In this document: one piece after another, positions 1 to 9,150 of the stretch
How positions within the stretch are numbered: the first letter of the stretch is position 1
Layout of the letters: each line of letters opens with the position of its first letter
Source: a virus
Lineage: Duplodnaviria > Heunggongvirae > Uroviricota > Caudoviricetes
Length of the DNA stretch: 15,128 nt
Reading direction: 5' to 3' (one strand)
Virus record (IMG/VR): IMGVR_UViG_3300021388_000002
Program-made: the position numbers and the translations under genes
Notes under the pieces: model-generated
The model's database searches: none
Seen by the model: only the letters and a program-made list of their open reading frames with translations
Told to the model about the DNA's origin: nothing

Positions 1-520
1 GGCGCTGGGCGCTGTGGCGTTCACCGCAGGCGGGTTCCAGCTGCGCTCCTGGTATGCCACGCTGGAGCCGCTGCCCGGTGCTCATCAGGACAAGGGCACC
101 ATGGCCTGGTGGAAGACCCAGCCGGAAGCCTGGGCCGAGGTGACCGCCTGCCCCATCCAGCCTGAGCACGCCATTCCGGACTTCGTGGCCTGGTGTGAGC
201 AGCTGCCCGGCAAGCCGGTGGCGGTGGGCTGGCCGATCGCGTTCGACTTCGCGTTCATCAACTACTACTGCTGGCAGTTCTGCGGCCGGAACCCGCTCGG
301 CTTCGGCGGCCTGGACATCCGCTCCTACGCCAATGGCCTGGCCGGGTACACCAGCTACCAGGGCCTGCCCGAGCGGGAGCTGCGCGCCCTGGCCGGCCGG
401 GTTGACACCACCGGGCTCCGGCCGCATGTGGCCGTGGACGACGCGATCGAGCAGGGCCGCCTGTTCATGGCGCTGCGCCGGTACGCCCAGCTGAACCTGG
501 AGGAGGTGGAAGTGCGGTGA
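1..520 (+). CDS. 3'-5' exoribonuclease, DEDDh / Rv2179c-like family (5'-partial)
   Basis: Frame is open from the window edge (ALGAVAF...). ExoII-like PIAFDFAFINYY and ExoIII-like HVAVDDAIEQ are present, plus the family-typical MAWWKTQPEAW segment. ExoI lies upstream of the window. GTGA overlap with the next gene. Confidence 0.8.
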   Translation, partial: ALGAVAFTAGGFQLRSWYATLEPLPGAHQDKGTMAWWKTQPEAWAEVTACPIQPEHAIPDFVAWCEQLPGKPVAVGWPIAFDFAFINYYCWQFCGRNPLGFGGLDIRSYANGLAGYTSYQGLPERELRALAGRVDTTGLRPHVAVDDAIEQGRLFMALRRYAQLNLEEVEVR

Positions 521-2586
521 GCGATATCGATGAGGACGAGGATTACGAGCGGGACGAGAACGCCGGCCTGGCTGAGGATGAGCCGTCCGGGGACGCCGGT
601 GAGGCCGGGCTGCTGGACTTCCGCCCGCGGGACGAGCGGGCCCAGCGCCCGCCACGCCAGCCGGTAGCTGTTGAGCACCATCTGTGGACGCACTCGATCG
701 AGAGTTCTGCCCTGGTTGCCCTCAGCATGCTCGCCGGGGCCTACTTCATTAACCGCACCAGCCTGAGCTGGGCCGTGATCATGCTGCCCGGAGCTGTGCT
801 GACCGCGGTGACCTGGTGGGTATCGCTGACCGCCACCGGCTCCCTGGTCATGGCTAACTACCTGGGTGCCTGGGGCGCGTTCGCCACCGCCTGGCTGACC
901 ACTGCCCGGTTCACCGGCCTGTGGCACACGCCACTGATCCTGGCCCTGATCACCGGTTCCCTCGTGCTGGCCCCGACCGGCGCCCTGGCCATCGGGCACC
1001 ACCGGGGCAAGCTGCGCCGTGCCGCCCTGGCCCGGACCGCTCAGGATAGCGGCGCGGACCTGCAGCGCTGGAAGATCCGGTTCGTCCGCCACGGCGTGCC
1101 GAACGTGGACATCCTGGAAGTGCTCCGGTTCGCCGGCGAGACCCAGGTGCACGGCCGGCTGGGCAAGGCTACCGACCTGATGCGCGCGCCCACGTTCGCC
1201 GCCCTGGAGGCCATTACCGGGCCGCTGGCTGTCGATGCCCGGGTCTCGCCGGACTGCGTGTACTTCCAGCAGGGCCGCACCGCGGCTGACTTCGTGCTGC
1301 ACCTGCGGGACAAGGCCACCCGGCGGGAGGTCGTGCCGCTGCCCCGGGACAACTCACCGACGACCATCAACGAGAAGATGGCCATCGGCGTGCAGGACAA
1401 CGGCCGGGAGTACAAGATGCTCCTGCGCGAGGTCTCCACGATGATCGTCGGGGTCCGCGGGTCGGGCAAGTCGAACCTGCTGAACGTGTTCCTGACCCTG
1501 CTCGCGCGGCACATGGACTGCCTCATCTTCATGATCGACCTCAAGGGCGGCCGGACGGCGCGGCCCTGGTTCGAGCCGTGGGTCCAGGGCGACTGCGACC
1601 GCCCCGTCATCGACTGGCTGGCCACCACCCGGGAGGAGGCCAAGATGATGATCGAGGCCCTGAACCGGGCGGGCAACGCGCGCGCTGAGTCCGGTGAGGG
1701 CTGGGAGAAGATCACCCCGACCAAGGACACCCCGGCCATCATCCTGGTCTGCGACGAGACCGCCATCATGACCGGGCACGGCACCCGCAAGGACGGCGTG
1801 TCCAACTACAACATCGCCATGGAGCTGGCCACGCTGGTGGAGACCTTCCGGTCTGAGGCCATCGACTATCTTGGCTCGGCACTTCGTGCGAACGTAGACA
1901 TCATGGGCTCCACTGCCGTCAAGTCCCAGTCTGAGGTCCGGATCGGCCTGCGGGTGACCTCCGTAGGCGACGGCATGTCCATCTTCCCGGACCACCCAGA
2001 CCAGGCCAAGCGGCTGGCCGCGCTGCGGGACAAGGGCGACGGCATCGTCAAGTACGGCGCTGACTTCAGCCCGGCCGTGCACTTCTACCGGGTCGGCTCC
2101 CGCAAGCGCATCCTGGACACCGCGCGGGCCACCGGCAACCACCGGCCCGCGCCCGAGCAGCGCATCGTGGAGGCCATGGGCGAGGCCTACACCGAGCGCT
2201 GGAACCGCGAGCACGGCCAGCGGCTGCTGAGCGCCTGGCGCCGGGACATCGGCCTGCCCGGCCGGGCGCCTGGTGACGAGCCGGAAGCGGACGTGGATGA
2301 TGAGTTCGCCGAGATCATCTCGCACTCGTGGAAGGAAGACCCGGAGAAGCCCCCGCACGCCAGCCGCAAGCGGATGTGGCAGCTCATCCACTCCAAGGGC
2401 ATGAACGGCCTGTCGGTGGCCCGGATCACCGCCATCCTGGACAGCGAGGGCCTGAACGTCCGCCGGGAGACCATCCAGCGCTGGCTGAAGGACGACGAGT
2501 CCCGCGGCCTGGTCCAGCGCACCGGGGCGCCCGTGCACCGCTGGGTCTGGATCGGCCGCGGGGAGAGCAACGAGCTGCTGCGGTAA
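517..2586 (+). CDS. FtsK/SpoIIIE-family DNA translocase, actinomycete TraB-like, with N-terminal membrane anchor and C-terminal winged helix
   Basis: 689 aa. Acidic N-terminus, about 4 hydrophobic segments (aa ~65-160), Walker A GVRGSGKS (1450-1473), MIDLKGG, Walker B ILVCDE (1741-1758), and a C-terminal wHTH-like segment ending HRWVW (2365-2550). Confidence 0.88.
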   Translation: MSDIDEDEDYERDENAGLAEDEPSGDAGEAGLLDFRPRDERAQRPPRQPVAVEHHLWTHSIESSALVALSMLAGAYFINRTSLSWAVIMLPGAVLTAVTWWVSLTATGSLVMANYLGAWGAFATAWLTTARFTGLWHTPLILALITGSLVLAPTGALAIGHHRGKLRRAALARTAQDSGADLQRWKIRFVRHGVPNVDILEVLRFAGETQVHGRLGKATDLMRAPTFAALEAITGPLAVDARVSPDCVYFQQGRTAADFVLHLRDKATRREVVPLPRDNSPTTINEKMAIGVQDNGREYKMLLREVSTMIVGVRGSGKSNLLNVFLTLLARHMDCLIFMIDLKGGRTARPWFEPWVQGDCDRPVIDWLATTREEAKMMIEALNRAGNARAESGEGWEKITPTKDTPAIILVCDETAIMTGHGTRKDGVSNYNIAMELATLVETFRSEAIDYLGSALRANVDIMGSTAVKSQSEVRIGLRVTSVGDGMSIFPDHPDQAKRLAALRDKGDGIVKYGADFSPAVHFYRVGSRKRILDTARATGNHRPAPEQRIVEAMGEAYTERWNREHGQRLLSAWRRDIGLPGRAPGDEPEADVDDEFAEIISHSWKEDPEKPPHASRKRMWQLIHSKGMNGLSVARITAILDSEGLNVRRETIQRWLKDDESRGLVQRTGAPVHRWVWIGRGESNELLR

Positions 2587-2594
2587 AGCAGCCC

Positions 2595-2610
2595 TGGTAG
2601 ACTGTAAAAT
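2595..2610 (+). promoter_or_regulatory. Candidate extended -10 promoter for the downstream operon
   Basis: TG-G-TAGACT (2595-2603) followed by TAAAAT (2605-2610) in an AT-rich gap, upstream of a strong SD GGAGGAGG (2630-2638). No clear -35. Confidence 0.4.
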
Positions 2611-2646
2611 GACACTAACGGACAAGCCTGGGAGGAGGAAGCGCAG

Positions 2647-2772
2647 ATGCTCTGGACCATTCTCGGCTGGGCGGTGGTCATCCTGATCATCCTGTGGGTC
2701 GTGCACAACCCGCAGGCAGCCGCCAACGACGTGCATGGCCTGTTCGCGTTCGGCAGCGACCTCAGCCACTGA
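2647..2772 (+). CDS. 41-aa single-pass membrane protein (not in the ORF track)
   Basis: ATG after a strong SD; MLWTILGWAVVILIILWVVHNPQAAANDVHGLFAFGSDLSH. One TM helix followed by P-x-x-A-A, a pattern I associate with small actinobacterial mobile-element proteins. Confidence 0.7.
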   Translation: MLWTILGWAVVILIILWVVHNPQAAANDVHGLFAFGSDLSH

Positions 2773-2822
2773 CAGCCGGTTACGCGCTAGATTGCGCAGG
2801 GCAGGCCGCTCAGAGGAGAGAC

Positions 2823-3002
2823 ATGATCACGATCACGACTACCAGCCCCGCCGAGGCCCGCGCTGCCGCTGACCTGGTAGCCAGCTTCCCGCCTGGCGTC
2901 TCATACCAGGTCTGGCTGGACGGCTCGGTTGTTGCCTCGCGCGGCGAGCCGGGCTCAGATACCACCCGCGGGCAGTGGGGCACCGAGCCCGAGATGCGCT
3001 GA
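2823..3002 (+). CDS. Hypothetical protein, 59 aa
   Basis: SD GAGGAG ahead of ATG 2823; MITITTTSPAEARAAADLVASF...; GC-rich third codon positions. Confidence 0.6.
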   Translation: MITITTTSPAEARAAADLVASFPPGVSYQVWLDGSVVASRGEPGSDTTRGQWGTEPEMR

Positions 3003-3040
3003 CCCCCGCCCGGAACACAGGAACAGGAGACCGCACGACC

Positions 3041-4090
3041 ATGACCACGCATGACCAGATCCCCCAGCTGGATGACGACGGCCCCGTTACCGTCACCGGC
3101 ATGGCCGCTAAGGTTGCGGCTGAGACAGCTGAGCGCCGGGCCCAGGATCGCGCTGGCCGGCTCGCCGCCCGTACCCGCACCGCCCGCAAGGACGCGCTGG
3201 AGATGGCCCGCTCGTTCGTCCTGAGCCAGCGCGAGGCCCCGCGGCTGGCGCTCGGGGTCGCGCAGCAGCTGGCCAGCTGGGTGCTGGCCGCCGGAGGCGA
3301 GACTGACGCGGATGTGCTGGACCGCCGGCTCCGGGCCGTGTGCCTGTATTTTGATGCCTGTACCCTGACCCGTGGCCGCCGGGGCCTGGACGGCCACGAT
3401 GTGGGCGAGTTCCTGGCCGGGGTGCAGACGTACCTGGATTACCTGGACACCGGCCAGATCCCCGCTGCGGACACCAGCCGGGAAGCCGTTTCCGGACCTG
3501 GCCGGGGGCCTGTTATCCCGCCTCCTGCCTCGTCCGGCCTGCCCGCCCGGCTGGCGGATGCGGCAGGCGCGCCGGAACCTGAGATTGACCCGCGGCACGC
3601 CTTTCTGCGGGAAGCGCTGATCCGGCACGGCGCCGATGGCGCCACCGTTCAGGAGCTGTGGGGTGAGCTGCTGTGCAGCAACCTGCCGGGCAGCCGCAGC
3701 ACAAGCCGGGAGCCCGTGTACCACTGGCTGCGGCAGGATCGTGAGGCTGGCCTGGTGCGCCGGGAGCCTGCGGACTTCGGGGTAGGCCGCCCGGCGCACC
3801 GCTGGTACTGGACTGCTGCTGAGCAGCCCGCCATCCGCAAGCTGACCCGGGCCGAATGGGCGCACCGGCTGGACCGGGCCGGCCTGGCTGGCGTTCAGGT
3901 GCAGGACGTCCTGCATTACCGGGACCGGGCCCTCGTGCGCGGCACCGCCATCATGCCGTTCACCACCTCACCGGGCCGGGTGCGCCAGGCGCTCATGCGG
4001 TTCCTGGGTGTTCCCGCGCTGGGCCTCGTCCAGTTCGAGTATGCCCAGAACGGCGAGTTCCTGCTGGACGTGACGGGAGCGCGCCCGTGA
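3041..4090 (+). CDS. Multidomain protein: helical N-terminus, TraB-like winged helix, and a copy of the TraB pre-ATPase domain (349 aa)
   Basis: SD AGGAG then ATG 3041. The wHTH segment at 3593-3811 aligns to TraB 2365-2550; the C-terminal segment at 3857-4074 aligns to TraB 1069-1305. No Walker motifs. Confidence 0.75.
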   Translation: MTTHDQIPQLDDDGPVTVTGMAAKVAAETAERRAQDRAGRLAARTRTARKDALEMARSFVLSQREAPRLALGVAQQLASWVLAAGGETDADVLDRRLRAVCLYFDACTLTRGRRGLDGHDVGEFLAGVQTYLDYLDTGQIPAADTSREAVSGPGRGPVIPPPASSGLPARLADAAGAPEPEIDPRHAFLREALIRHGADGATVQELWGELLCSNLPGSRSTSREPVYHWLRQDREAGLVRREPADFGVGRPAHRWYWTAAEQPAIRKLTRAEWAHRLDRAGLAGVQVQDVLHYRDRALVRGTAIMPFTTSPGRVRQALMRFLGVPALGLVQFEYAQNGEFLLDVTGARP

Positions 4091-4305
4091 GCGACGCCGA
4101 CCGGCGGCACACCCGGATGCGCGAGATGCTGGCCCAGCAGGGCGAGCGGGGTGCCAGCAGCCGCCAGCTGGCCGGCTGGCTGTCCGGGGAGGGGCTGAAC
4201 ACGCCGCTGGACCGGGTGCAGGGCTGGCTGGCCCAGGACATGAATACCGGGCTGACCCGGATGGTGGCCCCGCTGCACTGGGTCTGGACCGGGCCGCAGC
4301 CATGA
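4087..4305 (+). CDS. Stand-alone winged-helix protein paralogous to the TraB C-terminus (72 aa)
   Basis: GTG start overlaps the previous stop (GTGA). GERGASSRQLAGWLSGEGLNTPLDRVQGWLAQD...APLHWVW matches TraB GMNGLSVARITAILDSEGLNVRRETIQRWLKDD...APVHRWVW. Confidence 0.75.
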   Translation: MSDADRRHTRMREMLAQQGERGASSRQLAGWLSGEGLNTPLDRVQGWLAQDMNTGLTRMVAPLHWVWTGPQP

Positions 4306-4691
4306 GCGCGCACGCCCAGCTGGTGAGCTGGCTGGATGACCTGCACCGCCGGGCGGGCCGGCCGAGCACCCGCACGATCGGCGGGGCCGCCGGGGTCAGC
4401 CACACCACCGTGCACGACATGCTGACCGGGCAGCGCCTCCCGGCGTGGCCCCGGCTGGCCGCGGTCGCCCAGGTACTGGGCGGGGACCTGGAGGAGGCCG
4501 CCAAGCTGTGGGAGCTGGCGGCGGAAGGCCGTTCCGGGCGGCGGGGCCGTCAGGTCGTCATCATCCCCGATGAGGAAGCCGAGGCCATCGCCGTGGCGGT
4601 GGCCGTGCTGGCGCATCTCAGCCCGGCCGCCCAGGCCCGGGTCATGGCCTTCCTGGCTGAGCGGTTTCCCGAGACGGAGGGCATCCTGTGA
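4302..4691 (+). CDS. XRE-family helix-turn-helix regulator
   Basis: LDDLHRRAGRPSTRTIGGAAGVSHTTVHDMLTGQRLPAW is the typical actinobacterial XRE-HTH pattern. ATGA-coupled. Confidence 0.8.
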   Translation: MSAHAQLVSWLDDLHRRAGRPSTRTIGGAAGVSHTTVHDMLTGQRLPAWPRLAAVAQVLGGDLEEAAKLWELAAEGRSGRRGRQVVIIPDEEAEAIAVAVAVLAHLSPAAQARVMAFLAERFPETEGIL

Positions 4692-5173
4692 GCCGCCTGG
4701 TTTCCATCGGGTTCACCGGCACCCGGCACGGCATGACCCGGGCCCAGATGCTGGCGATGCACCAGCTGCTGTCCCACGAGGTGCTGGCCGCCGAGTGGGA
4801 GGACGGCGTGAGCTTCCACGCTCACCATGGCCGGTGCGTGGGCGCGGACACCGAGTTCAGCGCCATCGCCATGATCACCGGGTACCGGGTCATCGCCCAC
4901 CCGGGCCCGCCCTCACGCTGGTCCTCGGGCTGCCAGGTGGACGAGCTGCGGCCGGAGAAGCCGTTCCTGGCCCGGGACCGCGACATCGTGGCCGAGTCCG
5001 GCTGGCTGCTGGCCGCGCCGTACACGCACGCGCCGGTCCCGCATTCGGGGACCTGGACGACCATCTGGTACGCCCTTCAGGCTCAGACCGCGGTTACCGT
5101 CATCCGGCCGGACGGCAGCGCCGCCCCGCTGGAGCAGGTGGCCCTGCAGCTGACCCGGGTGATGGCGTCATGA
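4688..5173 (+). CDS. SLOG-superfamily (DprA/Smf-like) nucleotide-binding protein
   Basis: Motifs IGFTGTRHG, HHGRCVGAD, FLARDRDIV and SGTWTT match the short phage-type SLOG domain. Confidence 0.7.
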   Translation: MSRLVSIGFTGTRHGMTRAQMLAMHQLLSHEVLAAEWEDGVSFHAHHGRCVGADTEFSAIAMITGYRVIAHPGPPSRWSSGCQVDELRPEKPFLARDRDIVAESGWLLAAPYTHAPVPHSGTWTTIWYALQAQTAVTVIRPDGSAAPLEQVALQLTRVMAS

Positions 5174-5334
5174 AGACCCTCACCGAGCTGCGTGCCGCGC
5201 CCGGCCTGTGGCGCACGCTGATCTGTGCCGTGGTACTGGCCGGGATCTGGATCGCCGCCTTCCTGCTGTCTGTGCCCGGCCTGCTGGCTTATGCCCACAT
5301 GGTTGTTCTCGCTGAGCTGGGGGTGGCGCCATGA
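5170..5334 (+). CDS. Small membrane protein, 54 aa
   Basis: ATGA overlaps at both ends; hydrophobic LICAVVLAGIWIAAFLLSVPGLLAY. Confidence 0.65.
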   Translation: MKTLTELRAAPGLWRTLICAVVLAGIWIAAFLLSVPGLLAYAHMVVLAELGVAP

Positions 5335-5603
5335 GCGACCGCAAGCACCCGGGCTGGACCGGCGCGCTGCTGAGCGTCGCCTCGGCGTTCGGCTGGTGGC
5401 CCGCGATCAGCGGCCTGATGCTGGGGTCCGGGGTGGTCCTGGTCCTCAATCACTACAGCTGGGCCTGGGCTGTGCTGGGCCCGGCCATAGCCATGTTCGC
5501 GCTGTGCTCGCTGGGTACCACAATCCGTGCGCACATGGTTGTCCGCCAGGCCCAGCGCATCCTGGCCAGCAGCAGCGACGGCCCGCCGGGGGGCCGGCCA
5601 TGA
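5331..5603 (+). CDS. Small membrane protein, 90 aa
   Basis: ATGA overlaps at both ends; 2-3 hydrophobic segments. Confidence 0.7.
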   Translation: MSDRKHPGWTGALLSVASAFGWWPAISGLMLGSGVVLVLNHYSWAWAVLGPAIAMFALCSLGTTIRAHMVVRQAQRILASSSDGPPGGRP

Positions 5604-6256
5604 GCACTGTTACCCGCCGCCGGCGCCGCCCCATCCTCATCACGACCCGCCGCAAGCGGCGCCGCTACCGCGCCCCGGTCACCCGCGGCGTGCTGTTCGG
5701 CCCGGCGCTCGGCCTGCCGCTGTGGGGCTGGGCCGATCTTGGCTGGGAGCACCTGGCCCGGCCGCTGGCGTGGGGCACCCTGGGCGTCATGCTGGTGGCC
5801 TCCCTGCTCATCGTGCCCGCCGCCGCCCTGCTGGTGGCGTTCCTGCCCTCGGCCTGGGGCCTGCTCGTGCCGTGCAGCTGGCGCAAGGCCCACCGGGCCC
5901 GGCACGGCCGGGAGAACTGCCGCTCGGCGTACATCCCGGCGTTCCTGCGGCGGCTCATCTTCCGGACCGACCGCTGGCAGTGCGTGTGCTGCGGCAGCGC
6001 CATCAATCTGCAGGTCGATCACGTCTTCCCGTGGTCGCTCGGCGGCCTGACCGTGTTCTTCAACCTGGTCACGCTGTGCGCGGTGTGCAACCGGACGAAG
6101 TCCAACTACTGGTTCTTCCGCCGCTCCGGCCGGTCGGTCTACGTGCCGTTTGCTGGCGCAGGTGACCGTAGCCGTGCGGCGTACATCCTGGCGTACGAGA
6201 AGTCGCACCGCTGGCGCCCGCTGCGGCTACTCCGGGCCGCCTGGGCGCTGAACTAG
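5600..6256 (+). CDS. HNH endonuclease with Arg-rich N-terminus and transmembrane segment(s), 218 aa
   Basis: IPAFLRRLIFRTDRWQCVCCG...VDHVFPWSLGG...NLVTLCAVCNRTKSN is a complete HNH/zinc motif, preceded by the hydrophobic stretch LAWGTLGVMLVASLLIVPAAALLVAFLP. Confidence 0.85.
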   Translation: MSTVTRRRRRPILITTRRKRRRYRAPVTRGVLFGPALGLPLWGWADLGWEHLARPLAWGTLGVMLVASLLIVPAAALLVAFLPSAWGLLVPCSWRKAHRARHGRENCRSAYIPAFLRRLIFRTDRWQCVCCGSAINLQVDHVFPWSLGGLTVFFNLVTLCAVCNRTKSNYWFFRRSGRSVYVPFAGAGDRSRAAYILAYEKSHRWRPLRLLRAAWALN

Positions 6257-6261
6257 GAGTC

Positions 6262-6528
6262 ATGGTGGATGAGCACGGGAGCCAGGCCGGGGAGCTGGCC
6301 GCGGCCCGGGAGATGCTGCAGCGGTCGGCCGATCTGCTCTGTGACCGGGTCCAGTTCCGCGCGCTGGTAGGCGGCCAGGCCGGCAAGCCCCAGGCCGTAA
6401 CCGTGGTGGTGGAGGACATCACCTGGCTGCGCCGGGATGACTGCTGCCGGGAGCTGCTGGATTACCTGGCCCTGTACGGGCCGGGCGAGAACGTCATCCT
6501 GTGCATTCCCGGGGTAACCGGGCACTGA
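6262..6528 (+). CDS. Hypothetical protein, 88 aa
   Basis: SD AGGAG directly after the HNH stop; GC-rich third codon positions; no recognised motif. Confidence 0.65.
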   Translation: MVDEHGSQAGELAAAREMLQRSADLLCDRVQFRALVGGQAGKPQAVTVVVEDITWLRRDDCCRELLDYLALYGPGENVILCIPGVTGH

Positions 6529-6723
6529 GGTCTCGCCCCGGTCCGTGCGGCGTACCGATCAGGACACGCCAGGGGTAAACCACTGCGCACATCCGGCCGT
6601 CTCAGTACCATCGGGAAGGCTGTCCCGTGGCGTCCCATAAGGGCCGTTAAACCCGTTAAACGCGCAATGGCGGGCAAAGGCAGCATCCATCACCTTATCC
6701 CGGGAAGGCACGGAAAACCCACC
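6529..6723 (+). promoter_or_regulatory. Long untranslated leader with possible RNA structure (degenerate c-di-AMP riboswitch-like)
   Basis: About 195 nt non-coding. Pairings GGAC(AC)GCCA 6562-6571 with TGGCGTCC 6628-6635, and CGGGA 6612-6616 with TCCCG 6623-6627. Tandem CCGTTAAAC x2 at 6644-6661. The resemblance to ydaO-class motifs is only partial. Confidence 0.25.
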
Positions 6724-7989
6724 ATGCACAACAGGTATATCAGGGCGGCTGGCGCGCTGGCTACGCTCGTGCTCGCGGGCAGCACCGCCGCGCTCACGGC
6801 CGGGCCGGCTGGCGCCGCGACAGCCTCCTACAACGACACGCGGGTAACCGCGTCTGGCACACATGTTGTAGACCGCGTGACCGGCGCGGCAGGTGCACGC
6901 GACGTCGCGGCTGTCGCTCCTGCGGTCAGCACGCAGGTCAAGGTCTCGGGCTTGTTTGGCCCTGACTCGGGCGCCGGCACGTACTCGCTTGTGTCCCCGG
7001 CCAGCATCGACGGGGTGACGCTGCAGCTGTCCACGGTTGATGGCGGCAATGTCGTCATCTCAGGCAGCGGCACGCCGAGCAGCACGGCGACCACCAGCGA
7101 GCAGGGCACTGTCCGGCTGGTTTACACCGATGCTGACAACGACGTGGCCATTGTGGACGTCCCAGTAGTCGTTGGCACGAATTCCGTGCAGCTGCAGAAC
7201 CCGGCTGAGGGCAACGGCGGGGCGACGACCTATGAGGTCTCGGACATCAGCTCCGTCAATGACAACACTGACGGAGCCGTGGTGTTCTATGTGACCACGA
7301 CCGAGATCGCCCCGAGTGGCGGCAGCACCGTCACGACGACCAGCACCGCCGAGGCGGCCACCGCGTCCGAGAGCAACCTGCCGACCGGCCTGGCCAGCGC
7401 GCAGCCGCTTTCACCAGCCGGCGCCACTGCCACGCCAGGTGAGTACAACGACGTGCTCGTCCGGGCCACCGACTCGGTAGGCGCCAGTGCACTCGGGGAA
7501 ACCCGCATCACGATCACCGCCAGCCGCGTCAGGACCCCGCGCGTGAGCAGCGTCGGCGACTTCGCCAACGCTTTCGGCAATGGCCCGGACGCCTACCGCC
7601 AGCTGTACTACCCGGGTGCCCGGGTGGCCGGCTGGACCGTGACCCGGGGCGACATCGCCACCAACCTCATCCGCGTCCAGGTGGGCACCACGACCGGGGG
7701 CGCGCCCATCTACCGGCTGGAGTTCGAGCGCTACTTCGGCAGCTCCAGGGGCGCCTCGGGTGAGTGCATGACCCAGGTGAATACCTCCGTGCTGGAGGAG
7801 ACCTGCACCGAGAGCAGCCTGGCGCAGGACTGGTACCTCAACGGCAGCAGCTACCTCACCAATGCCGCTTCCGGCCTGTTCGTCACCCCGCACGGCACCG
7901 GGGCGCTGCTGACCGTCAGCACCGACCCCACCTCCGGCGGTGGCAGCGGTGTCTACCACTGGGTCAGCCTCGGTTCCTACCGCAGCTGA
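6724..7989 (+). CDS. Secreted protein with Ig-like segments and a C-terminal ricin-B-like beta-trefoil (421 aa)
   Basis: Sec signal MHNRYIRAAGALATLVLAGSTAALTAGPAGA/A. Ig-like NLPTGL...TPGEYNDVLVRATDSVGAS. Trefoil-like GECMTQV...ETC...LAQDWYLNG...LTNAASGLFV. The alternative start at 6667 would bury the signal peptide. Confidence 0.7.
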   Translation: MHNRYIRAAGALATLVLAGSTAALTAGPAGAATASYNDTRVTASGTHVVDRVTGAAGARDVAAVAPAVSTQVKVSGLFGPDSGAGTYSLVSPASIDGVTLQLSTVDGGNVVISGSGTPSSTATTSEQGTVRLVYTDADNDVAIVDVPVVVGTNSVQLQNPAEGNGGATTYEVSDISSVNDNTDGAVVFYVTTTEIAPSGGSTVTTTSTAEAATASESNLPTGLASAQPLSPAGATATPGEYNDVLVRATDSVGASALGETRITITASRVRTPRVSSVGDFANAFGNGPDAYRQLYYPGARVAGWTVTRGDIATNLIRVQVGTTTGGAPIYRLEFERYFGSSRGASGECMTQVNTSVLEETCTESSLAQDWYLNGSSYLTNAASGLFVTPHGTGALLTVSTDPTSGGGSGVYHWVSLGSYRS

Positions 7990-8095: not shown

Positions 8096-8157
8096 CCCCC
8101 GTGGCCCAGGCGTTACCGGTAGGCTCGGCGTGCTCACTCCCGGCAGAACGGTGCCTG

Positions 8158-9150
8158 ATGACCACCACGTTCACGTACGACTCGCCGCAGGATCACGCGG
8201 CCTCGCTCCCGCAGTTCACCCGGTACGCCCAGAACCCGGTCTTCACCCAGTCCCAGCCCGGCCAGCCATCAGCGAGCCTCTACTGGCCATGGGTTATCCG
8301 GGTGGACTCGATCCTGGCCAGCCCGATCGACGTGTACTACATGTGGTATTCCACCGACCACGGGGCGGGCGGCATCTACCTGGCCACCGCCCCGGACCCG
8401 CGCGGGCCGTGGACCCCGCAGGGCCTGTGCTTCCAGGACAACGTGCCCTCCAGCCCGGCCGAGTGCCCGAGCGTGATCTGGAATGAGCAGACCGGGCTGT
8501 TCCACTGCTACTACAAGTCCGCCCTGCCCCCGGGCCGCTCCTCGCTGGCCACCAGCGCGGACGGCCGGACCAGCTGGACCTTCCACGACCAGATCATCAC
8601 CGCGCCGCAGCCCGCTTACCCCGGCGACGGGTTCGTGGGCTACAACCGGCCCGGCCGGATCGGCAACCTATGGTTCATGCACCACCTGATGGGCGGCGGG
8701 AACAACCCGCACTTCGGGATCAGCTGGAGCCACGACGGGATCACCTGGCAGACCGACCCGCGGCCCCTGGTCTATGACCAGCACCTGACCCAGGGCATCC
8801 TGTCGCCGGATGGCACGCCGCGGCGGATTGAGTGGAACTCCGGCCAGGTCATCCACTGGCGCGGCCGGGACATCTGGATCGGGGAGCTGGCCAACTTCAC
8901 CTCGGGCGGCAACCCCGTGGACCGGGTCATCGCCGCCGCGCCGATCACCGCGAACCTGCGGTCCCTGCTCGGCCCGCCCACCGTGCTGTTCACGCCCGAG
9001 CCGTCGCAGTACTCCTGGGAGAGCGCCAACATGCGCGCGCTGTTCATCCTGCATGACGACCCGGGTGACGGGCAGGGAGACAGGCTGTGGATGTATATCC
9101 AGTGCAACAGCAACGCTTTCGGGCTCGCCGTGGCGCAGGTGGCCGCATGA
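8158..9150 (+). CDS. Five-bladed beta-propeller glycoside-hydrolase-like protein (GH43/32/130-type fold)
   Basis: Blade-like repeats YAQNPVF, YYMWYSTDHGAGGIYLATAPDPRGPW, ECPSVIWNEQTGLFHCYY, FGISWSHDGITW. No signal peptide. The start could be 8101 or 8158. Confidence 0.7.
   Translation: MTTTFTYDSPQDHAASLPQFTRYAQNPVFTQSQPGQPSASLYWPWVIRVDSILASPIDVYYMWYSTDHGAGGIYLATAPDPRGPWTPQGLCFQDNVPSSPAECPSVIWNEQTGLFHCYYKSALPPGRSSLATSADGRTSWTFHDQIITAPQPAYPGDGFVGYNRPGRIGNLWFMHHLMGGGNNPHFGISWSHDGITWQTDPRPLVYDQHLTQGILSPDGTPRRIEWNSGQVIHWRGRDIWIGELANFTSGGNPVDRVIAAAPITANLRSLLGPPTVLFTPEPSQYSWESANMRALFILHDDPGDGQGDRLWMYIQCNSNAFGLAVAQVAA

Follow-up and report, generated by a model that had tools for sequence, protein, structure and literature searches.

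The DNA analyzed here (the window, 15,128 nucleotides) corresponds to positions 46290-61417, minus strand, in a 164,420-bp IMG/VR virus record, IMGVR_UViG_3300021388_000002, that has terminal repeats and 70% GC. It encodes an FtsK/TraB-like double-stranded DNA (dsDNA) translocase, referred to here as the pump. Two proteins with copies of pump domains and no motor, p349 and p72, are encoded directly downstream, and these copies are referred to as satellites. An earlier, sequence-only reading had discussed the locus in terms of DNA transfer and mating. The element is not a conjugative plasmid, as TerL is encoded just beyond the 3' end of the window (phrog_9, E 2e-62) and the record also codes for helicases and for a 1952-amino-acid (aa) protein with tape-measure and transglycosylase matches. 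The source element is a large uncultured soil tailed phage. The features of the pump and its satellites are as follows.

517..2586, plus strand: FtsK/TraB-like dsDNA translocase, 689 aa, from a family alignment and an AlphaFold model.
1036..1311, plus strand: alpha-equivalent subdomain of the translocase, residues 174-265, the alleged template of the duplication, with boundaries from structural alignment.
2353..2556, plus strand: C-terminal winged helix of the translocase, residues 613-680, the parent type of the satellites, from the AlphaFold 2 (AF2) model.
3041..4090, plus strand: p349, 349 aa, from translation and a single-sequence AF2 model (predicted local distance difference test, pLDDT, 53).
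3551..3829, plus strand: p349 residues 171-263, part of the linker and a winged helix, a paralogue of the translocase C-terminus.
3830..4075, plus strand: p349 residues 264-345, a probable copy of the FtsK/TraB alpha subdomain, from hidden Markov models (HMMs), secondary structure, and Atlas neighbors.
4087..4305, plus strand: p72, 72 aa, a stand-alone winged helix, from BLASTP, hhalign, and the orthologue L014_85.

The AlphaFold model of the translocase, built with a 54-sequence homologue alignment as input, is confident (pLDDT 86.6). It is composed of three hydrophobic membrane helices (residues 54-133) followed by a long helix to residue 191, an FtsK-alpha-like alpha/beta domain (~174-265), a RecA-type beta motor (~266-562), a disordered linker (589-608), and a C-terminal winged helix (~613-680). 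The winged helix contains helices 615-630, 634-643, and 650-662 and two short strands, and is predicted to be gamma-like by its fold and its position in the protein. FtsK and TcpA chains align from residue 174-183 of the translocase, and the beta-only ATPases EssC and EccC from ~266. FtsK is a hexamer in which the alpha domains form one of two stacked rings (structures 2IUT and 6T8B), with the alpha subdomain stacked on the motor ring. Both structures are among the structural matches of the pump model. By this model, the pump is an FtsK alpha+beta motor, with a P-loop, plus a winged helix.

Family profiles describe a distant member of known groups. Pfam PF01580, FtsK_SpoIIIE, gives the translocase 16.1 bits, under its cut-off of 24; the precomputed annotation of many homologues at 35-45% identity does include PF01580. 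NCBIfam plasmid_TraB (NF041214) gives 28.2 bits against a cut-off of 800. The translocase is TraB-like in architecture only and lies outside the curated plasmid TraB family. In PHROGs, it matches the phage FtsK/SpoIIIE-like family phrog_31069 (E 6e-36). Metagenomes contain many homologues at 35-59% identity, several of them on 130-165-kb contigs; in cultured actinophages and actinomycete plasmids, matches reach 25-33% identity only. Several homologues (L003:7001-9529; P0016, P0053, P0025) are 830-1140 aa long through an insertion beside the P-loop. The L003 translocase match is interrupted at ~residues 318-323, and LAGLIDADG (PF14528) is found in two of the longer homologues. Judged from these matches, the insertions at the ATPase site are probably inteins in a phage pump.

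p72 aligns with the translocase winged helix at 39% identity over 62 aa (BLASTP E 6e-10), and hhalign against the 54-sequence translocase family profile gives E 5.7e-10. On these alignments, p72 is a paralogue of the translocase C-terminal winged helix, as had been proposed for this gene, which is coupled to p349 by a GTGA overlap. p349 is composed of a helical N-domain (residues 18-137), a Pro-rich linker, a winged helix (171-263), and an alpha/beta C-domain (264-345). Residues 171-263 match the translocase C-terminus (BLASTP E 1e-6; hhalign probability 97.5%, E 7.4e-12). An exhaustive HMMER search of 1.8 billion representative proteins with p349 returned only p349 itself and a C-terminal fragment of another phage's translocase, 42% identical across the winged-helix stretch. 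Neither tblastn in phage and plasmid collections nor a word-indexed search found a homologue of p349. A profile search of the PDB with the winged helices returned only generic ones such as Fur. FtsK_gamma (PF09397) has no match at E <= 0.1 for the translocase, p349, or p72, and none at E <= 10 for the satellite alignment.

This layout changes what had been read into p349. The protein is not just an alpha domain, since a helical N-domain and a winged helix precede the alpha-like part. The claim that p349 and p72 together give the TraB domain order without the membrane anchor and motor is correct only for p72 and the final domain of p349, since p349 also holds a winged helix of its own. The broader claim, that motor-less copies of translocase domains lie directly downstream of the translocase gene, stands.

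The distribution of the satellites was surveyed in the neighborhoods of 13 further translocase homologues and this phage, 14 elements in total, by scanning all open reading frames (ORFs) with HMMs of the three translocase parts. A satellite is defined here as a short ORF downstream of the pump with a winged helix that groups with other satellites and not with pump C-termini. Downstream extra winged helices occur in 4 of the 14 elements: this phage (G000), L003, L004/L005, and L014. This phage has two satellite genes, L003 has one of 127 aa, L004/L005 one of 115 aa, and L014 one of 85 aa and one of 208 aa with two tandem copies. In these four, every satellite with enough context is located <=5 kb downstream of its pump. 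The scan detected no additional copy of the alpha or motor part in any element, and a whole-genome search of a complete (100%) 162-kb relative found only the translocase's own winged helix. ZL12, PIS 136, and Keanu encode no paralogue of their own translocase C-terminus within 9 kb. A survey of this kind had been suggested together with the original claim; it recovers the winged-helix satellites in related elements, but p349 is a singleton.

The orthologue of p72, L014_85, is 45% identical to it (E 1e-18), compared with 49% identity between the translocases of the two phages, so the satellite changes at about the same low rate as the pump. In a winged-helix tree, six of the seven satellite domains form a group of their own, separate from the translocase C-termini (support 83/86). 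p72 and L014_85 form a pair (94/87), as do the two domains of L014_208 (97/94), and the winged helix of p349 falls in the satellite group. The satellite label is clustered on the tree, with 0/500 shuffles as low. A satellite profile retrieved only seven clusters among 5.8 billion proteins (39-223-aa range). The separate clade and the p72 orthologue point to old, maintained paralogues and not to decay products. On this phylogeny, the satellites make up an old paralogue lineage that is rare, maintained, and linked to the pump in a subgroup of uncultured 130-165-kb actinobacterial phages. The intact frames agree with the earlier view of the copies as diverged yet not decaying. The view that they are recent local duplicates of this phage's own pump gene is contradicted by the clade and by the orthologue in another phage.

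The C-domain of p349 (residues 264-345) is strongly basic (isoelectric point 11.1). It had been claimed to align with the domain just before the ATPase of the translocase, and in pairwise sequence comparison this likeness is weak. BLASTP finds no significant match between p349 272-345 and translocase 184-263. Smith-Waterman alignment of the same two segments scores 42 against 23.5 +/- 4.5 for shuffles, with just the first 29 residues aligned, and another place scores slightly above the alpha site when the p349 C-terminus is compared with the whole translocase. The hhalign match to the alpha-domain profile covers 32 columns (P 4.7e-4, probability 33%). Against the full-length profile, the best match lies right at the start of the alpha subdomain (P 5.9e-3, probability 6%). 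At this site, the translocase family consensus, W-E-x-L-L-A-R-x-G-V-x-G-V-x-V-x-D-V, is nearer to p349 than the translocase of its own phage is. A targeted hmmsearch gives the C-domain 13.3 bits, a score reached by 0/3000 composition-preserving shuffles (maximum 10.7); at E < 0.01 over all ORFs, hmmsearch does not report the domain. Pfam FtsK_alpha (PF17854) has no match in p349 264-345, and the pump's own alpha domain is likewise unmatched.

Structure prediction carries the claim further. In the AF2 models, the C-domain of p349 contains helix 270-279, strands 285-293 and 296-303, helix 311-322, and strands 327-334 and 339-345. The translocase contains a helix ending at residue 191, strands 197-205 and 208-215, helix 227-240, and strands 248-252 and 258-264. 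The six elements have an identical order and are in register, with a constant offset of 88 residues. In the ESM Atlas, which has an independent model of p349, 7 of the 10 neighbors listed for p349 262-349 bear FtsK_alpha or FtsK_SpoIIIE families or the TraB name, with template modeling (TM) scores by query of 0.60-0.70. Among the nearest clusters are a "plasmid transfer protein TraB" of 681 aa (TM by query 0.70) and several with FtsK_alpha, including a 156-aa cluster that has FtsK_gamma and FtsK_alpha and lacks a motor. Foldseek with our own p349 model gives short local matches to TcpA and FtsK that are non-significant (probability 0.84-0.93, E >= 0.29), and the whole p349 model has no significant match in the Atlas, AFDB clusters, or the PDB. 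Taken with the profile scores, the models make homology of the p349 C-domain to the translocase alpha subdomain probable, though unproven.

The pump and its satellites are part of a longer run of genes. The further features of this run are as follows.

Window 14-520: 3'-5' exonuclease-like gene (phrog_255, E 3e-10).
2647..2772, plus strand: p41, a 41-aa single-pass membrane protein, kept right after the translocase.
2823..3002, plus strand: p59, an N-terminal module of ~40 aa that begins MITIT, from BLASTP.
4302..4691, plus strand: XRE-type helix-turn-helix (HTH) protein, 129 aa (Pfam HTH_31, E 9.7e-8, above cut-off).
4688..5173, plus strand: p161, a 161-aa protein, last in the coupled chain, with a weak phrog_289 match (E 4e-5).

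Stop and start codons overlap from p349 to p161: GTGA between p349 and p72, ATGA between p72 and the HTH gene, and GTGA between the HTH gene and p161. The GC content at third codon positions (GC3) of the cassette frames is 0.83-0.95. p349 has a GC3 of 0.83, its neighbors 0.92-0.95, and p72 0.95; the values of both p349 and p72 are coding-like. Upstream, the exonuclease-like gene overlaps the translocase start by 4 nucleotides, and with the stop of the nuclease gene placed inside that start, the pump gene is translationally coupled to it. A promoter and terminator scan of window 1-6700 found nothing above shuffled expectation.

The p59 module matches L006_65 (BLASTP E 2e-13), the N-terminus of L003_127 (E 6e-7), and L014_50 (E 3e-6). 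It is free-standing in L006 and L014, and is joined to one or two winged helices in L003_127, L004_115, and L014_208. The ~40-aa module, which starts with MITIT or MIIV, was observed at window 2823-3002, L003:14125-14508, L004:9341-9688, and L014:3690-4316. Placed between conserved genes of the p59 and p72 types, p349 is an insertion and elaboration specific to this lineage. Homologues of p41 (40-55 aa) are encoded at L014:2811-2933, L006:3449-3583, and L016:3978-4145, which with the window makes at least four elements. Members of the p41 group share the same hydrophobic helix and the motif W-(V/I)-(V/I)-H-N-P...A..D-V. Proteins of the p41 type are possible small membrane partners of the pump.

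Farther downstream, window 5225-6256 encodes an HNH endonuclease domain (Pfam E 3.5e-9) that terminates a long ORF with a hydrophobic middle and an uncertain start. HNH genes are similarly placed downstream of the pump in L003, L006, L014, L015, and L016. The ORFs at 6667-7989 and 8101-9150 match no PHROGs family, and the first also has no match in Pfam or NCBIfam scans. The product of 6667-7989 is rich in Thr, Ser, and Ala, has an N-terminal hydrophobic stretch, and is possibly secreted. Two 151-nucleotide contigs in a rock-metagenome run of 2018 match p349 coding DNA without a difference (window 3205-3355 and 3453-3603). Other matches in that DNA run are short and dissimilar, and no variants of the p349/p72 stretch were seen. 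By these identities, the same or a very near phage is present at low depth in that rock sample.

As the favored but tentative explanation, plausible yet short of probable, the cassette may be an accessory set of DNA-binding partners of a membrane-anchored phage FtsK/TraB-type dsDNA pump. The satellites would bind DNA through their winged helices. The helical N-domain and the basic alpha-like domain of p349 could oligomerize or dock beside the alpha ring of the pump. The satellites might then flag DNA for the pump or hand it over, or adjust the place and time of loading; with the motor absent, they would themselves be unable to translocate DNA. That p349, p72, the HTH gene, and p161 form a translationally coupled chain right behind the pump gene supports an accessory role. 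Members of the pump family have a recognition helix with a conserved R-E-T-x-(H/Q)-R-W-L. The corresponding stretches are SREPVYHWL in p349 and PLDRVQGWL in p72, so the satellites may read different DNA words than the pump.

Several observations weigh against this explanation. In the DNA examined, 10 of the 14 related elements have no satellite, so the pump evidently works without one. p349 is confined to this phage, and the conservation of its parts cannot be checked. p72 and its orthologue lack the R-E-T start of the recognition helix, and the winged helices of p349 (charge -0.8) and p72 (+0.7) are near neutral, compared with +6.2 in the pump; DNA binding by the satellites is thus not assured. 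The alpha-like assignment leans on low-confidence models (pLDDT 53 and 0.57), and GspL/PulL and PilN domains also fit the same fold class, with GspL/PulL scoring alike in Foldseek. Motif searches also gave no target. Local k-mer counts found no enriched 6-8-mer in or near the window, as the top clusters of the genome lie elsewhere. Markov-corrected over-representation and strand skew gave no outstanding 7- or 8-mer genome-wide. A search of window 1-7000 for direct and inverted repeats found no repeat family, and none of these three approaches yielded a clt- or KOPS-like motif tied to the module.

The top local k-mer clusters, formed by AGCGTGGC and related words (17 copies within 1.5 kb), map to a very long ORF close to the end of the record (G000:C1:158601-164420). 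The AGCGTGGC cluster probably mirrors a repetitive structural protein and not a DNA site. Complex prediction of translocase 170-565 with p349 262-349 scored 0.00, which speaks neither for nor against binding. A gamma-Xer-type activation with a phage-coded target was considered and is unsupported, with no tyrosine recombinase in the phage record.

Other explanations dispute either the homology or the role of the satellites. The C-domain of p349 might be an unrelated ferredoxin-like alpha/beta domain with a convergent fold, in which case the winged helices alone would be duplicated. The silence of BLASTP and of hmmsearch at E < 0.01 and the low hhalign probabilities favor convergence, as do whole-model searches, in which PilN, GspL/PulL, and designed proteins appear as well, with E-values that are not significant. 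It is nonetheless doubtful, given that the best hhalign match falls exactly on the alpha start, that no shuffle reaches the HMM score, that the six secondary-structure elements are in register, and that most of the listed Atlas neighbors carry FtsK or TraB names. Decay is a far more remote prospect. The satellites would then be functionless remnants of a duplicated translocase gene, and the order of winged helix, alpha-like domain, and winged helix would be the expected leftover of a tandem duplication followed by deletions. p349 is a singleton with a GC3 below that of its neighbors, which agrees with decay, but the frames are intact and frameshift-free, their starts are coupled, the p72 orthologue is intact at its 45% identity, and several phages carry intact satellite genes that belong to one old clade.

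If the copies are functional, they might be ordinary early-gene transcription regulators, in which the winged helix was recruited from the translocase as a generic DNA-binding domain for control of phage or host promoters independent of the pump. The next coupled gene encodes an XRE-type HTH protein, the divergent recognition helices imply new targets, and the sporadic occurrence in relatives is often seen for accessory regulators. This role is unlikely, as every satellite with enough context is close downstream of a pump, the probable second pump domain of p349 would be superfluous to a plain repressor, and there are no operator-like repeats around the cassette. A dominant-negative brake or exclusion factor, one of the roles raised in the sequence-only reading, is somewhat less likely again. 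The alpha-like domain of p349 would cap or enter the hexamer while free winged helices compete for loading sites, and pumping would be shut off at a set time or the pump of a competing element would be blocked. p349 and p72 do hold alpha-like and winged-helix modules without a motor, they are co-transcribed just after the pump gene, and the alpha domains of the FtsK hexamer make up one of its two stacked rings. However, recognition helices unlike those of the pump argue against simple competition for the same sites, the satellites are absent from most relatives, and interaction with the pump remains hypothetical. A brake made in the same operon at a similar dose would also require extra control, and none was seen. 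The most specific version of the accessory role, in which motor-less alpha+gamma paralogues are regulatory subunits that co-assemble with the pump and choose the DNA and the timing, has a slim chance.

The closest known systems share parts of this arrangement. Streptomyces TraB (pSVH1, pIJ101), like this pump, has an N-terminal membrane anchor, an FtsK-type motor, and a C-terminal winged helix. Streptomyces plasmid TraB works in a multiprotein complex with small co-encoded Spd partners, and SpdA binds DNA and is proposed to link DNA to TraB (PMC4447253). Actinomycete plasmid TraB homologues have 25-33% identity to this pump. Unlike TraB-clt systems, the present one belongs to a tailed phage, and k-mer and skew searches found no clt-like repeat array. 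The present partners are paralogous to domains of their own pump, whereas PMC4447253 does not report this of Spd proteins.

Like FtsK, the pump ends in a winged helix that is tethered by a flexible linker and takes the gamma position. The gamma domain of FtsK, when isolated, works in trans and activates XerCD-dif recombination (PMC3130261), and this is a precedent for the activity of free reading heads. The phage differs from FtsK systems in that the translocase, p349, and p72 have no Pfam FtsK_gamma or FtsK_alpha match and the record holds no tyrosine recombinase. Motor-less FtsK_gamma/FtsK_alpha clusters of the ESM Atlas (156-187 aa) are the nearest structural neighbors of p349 262-349. One of these, with 64 members, has FtsK_gamma in 100%, FtsK_alpha in 56%, and no motor domain. 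Its domain content is that of the C-terminal half of p349, and it is known from automatic labels only. Exhaustive HMMER found no sequence-level link between the motor-less Atlas clusters and p349.

In the literature searched, there was no account of a motor gene accompanied by naturally encoded, free-standing paralogues of its gamma or alpha domain, in agreement with the original claim that no such system is described. Streptomyces phage genome papers note FtsK-like translocases without an explained role (PMC13587820, PMC11536984). Actinophage FtsK/SpoIIIE-like proteins (Keanu gp94, Hiyaa, PIS 136, P1312, and ZL12/pZL12) are 26-30% identical to this pump. The satellites are found in a subgroup of uncultured 130-165-kb phages and not near the pump in ZL12, PIS 136, or Keanu. 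On the alignments presented here, the homology is real and the arrangement is rare and undescribed; the accessory function is proposed.

Phage FtsK/TraB-like pumps are common in actinophages and their role is unexplained. The cassette offers a concrete handle on this role: small soluble proteins with the DNA-reading head of the pump and probably its ring domain. If the satellites are merely regulators with a borrowed winged helix, this would be a modest case of domain recruitment. The regulatory-subunit reading would fit a phage whose genome passes from one hyphal compartment or cell to another with no virion involved. If true, it would define a class of translocase regulators made from the ring-forming and DNA-reading domains of the translocase. 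If the satellites bind the pump or its sites, this would be a dsDNA translocase regulated in trans by copies of its own domains, and a pointer to the DNA sequences that the phage pump recognizes.

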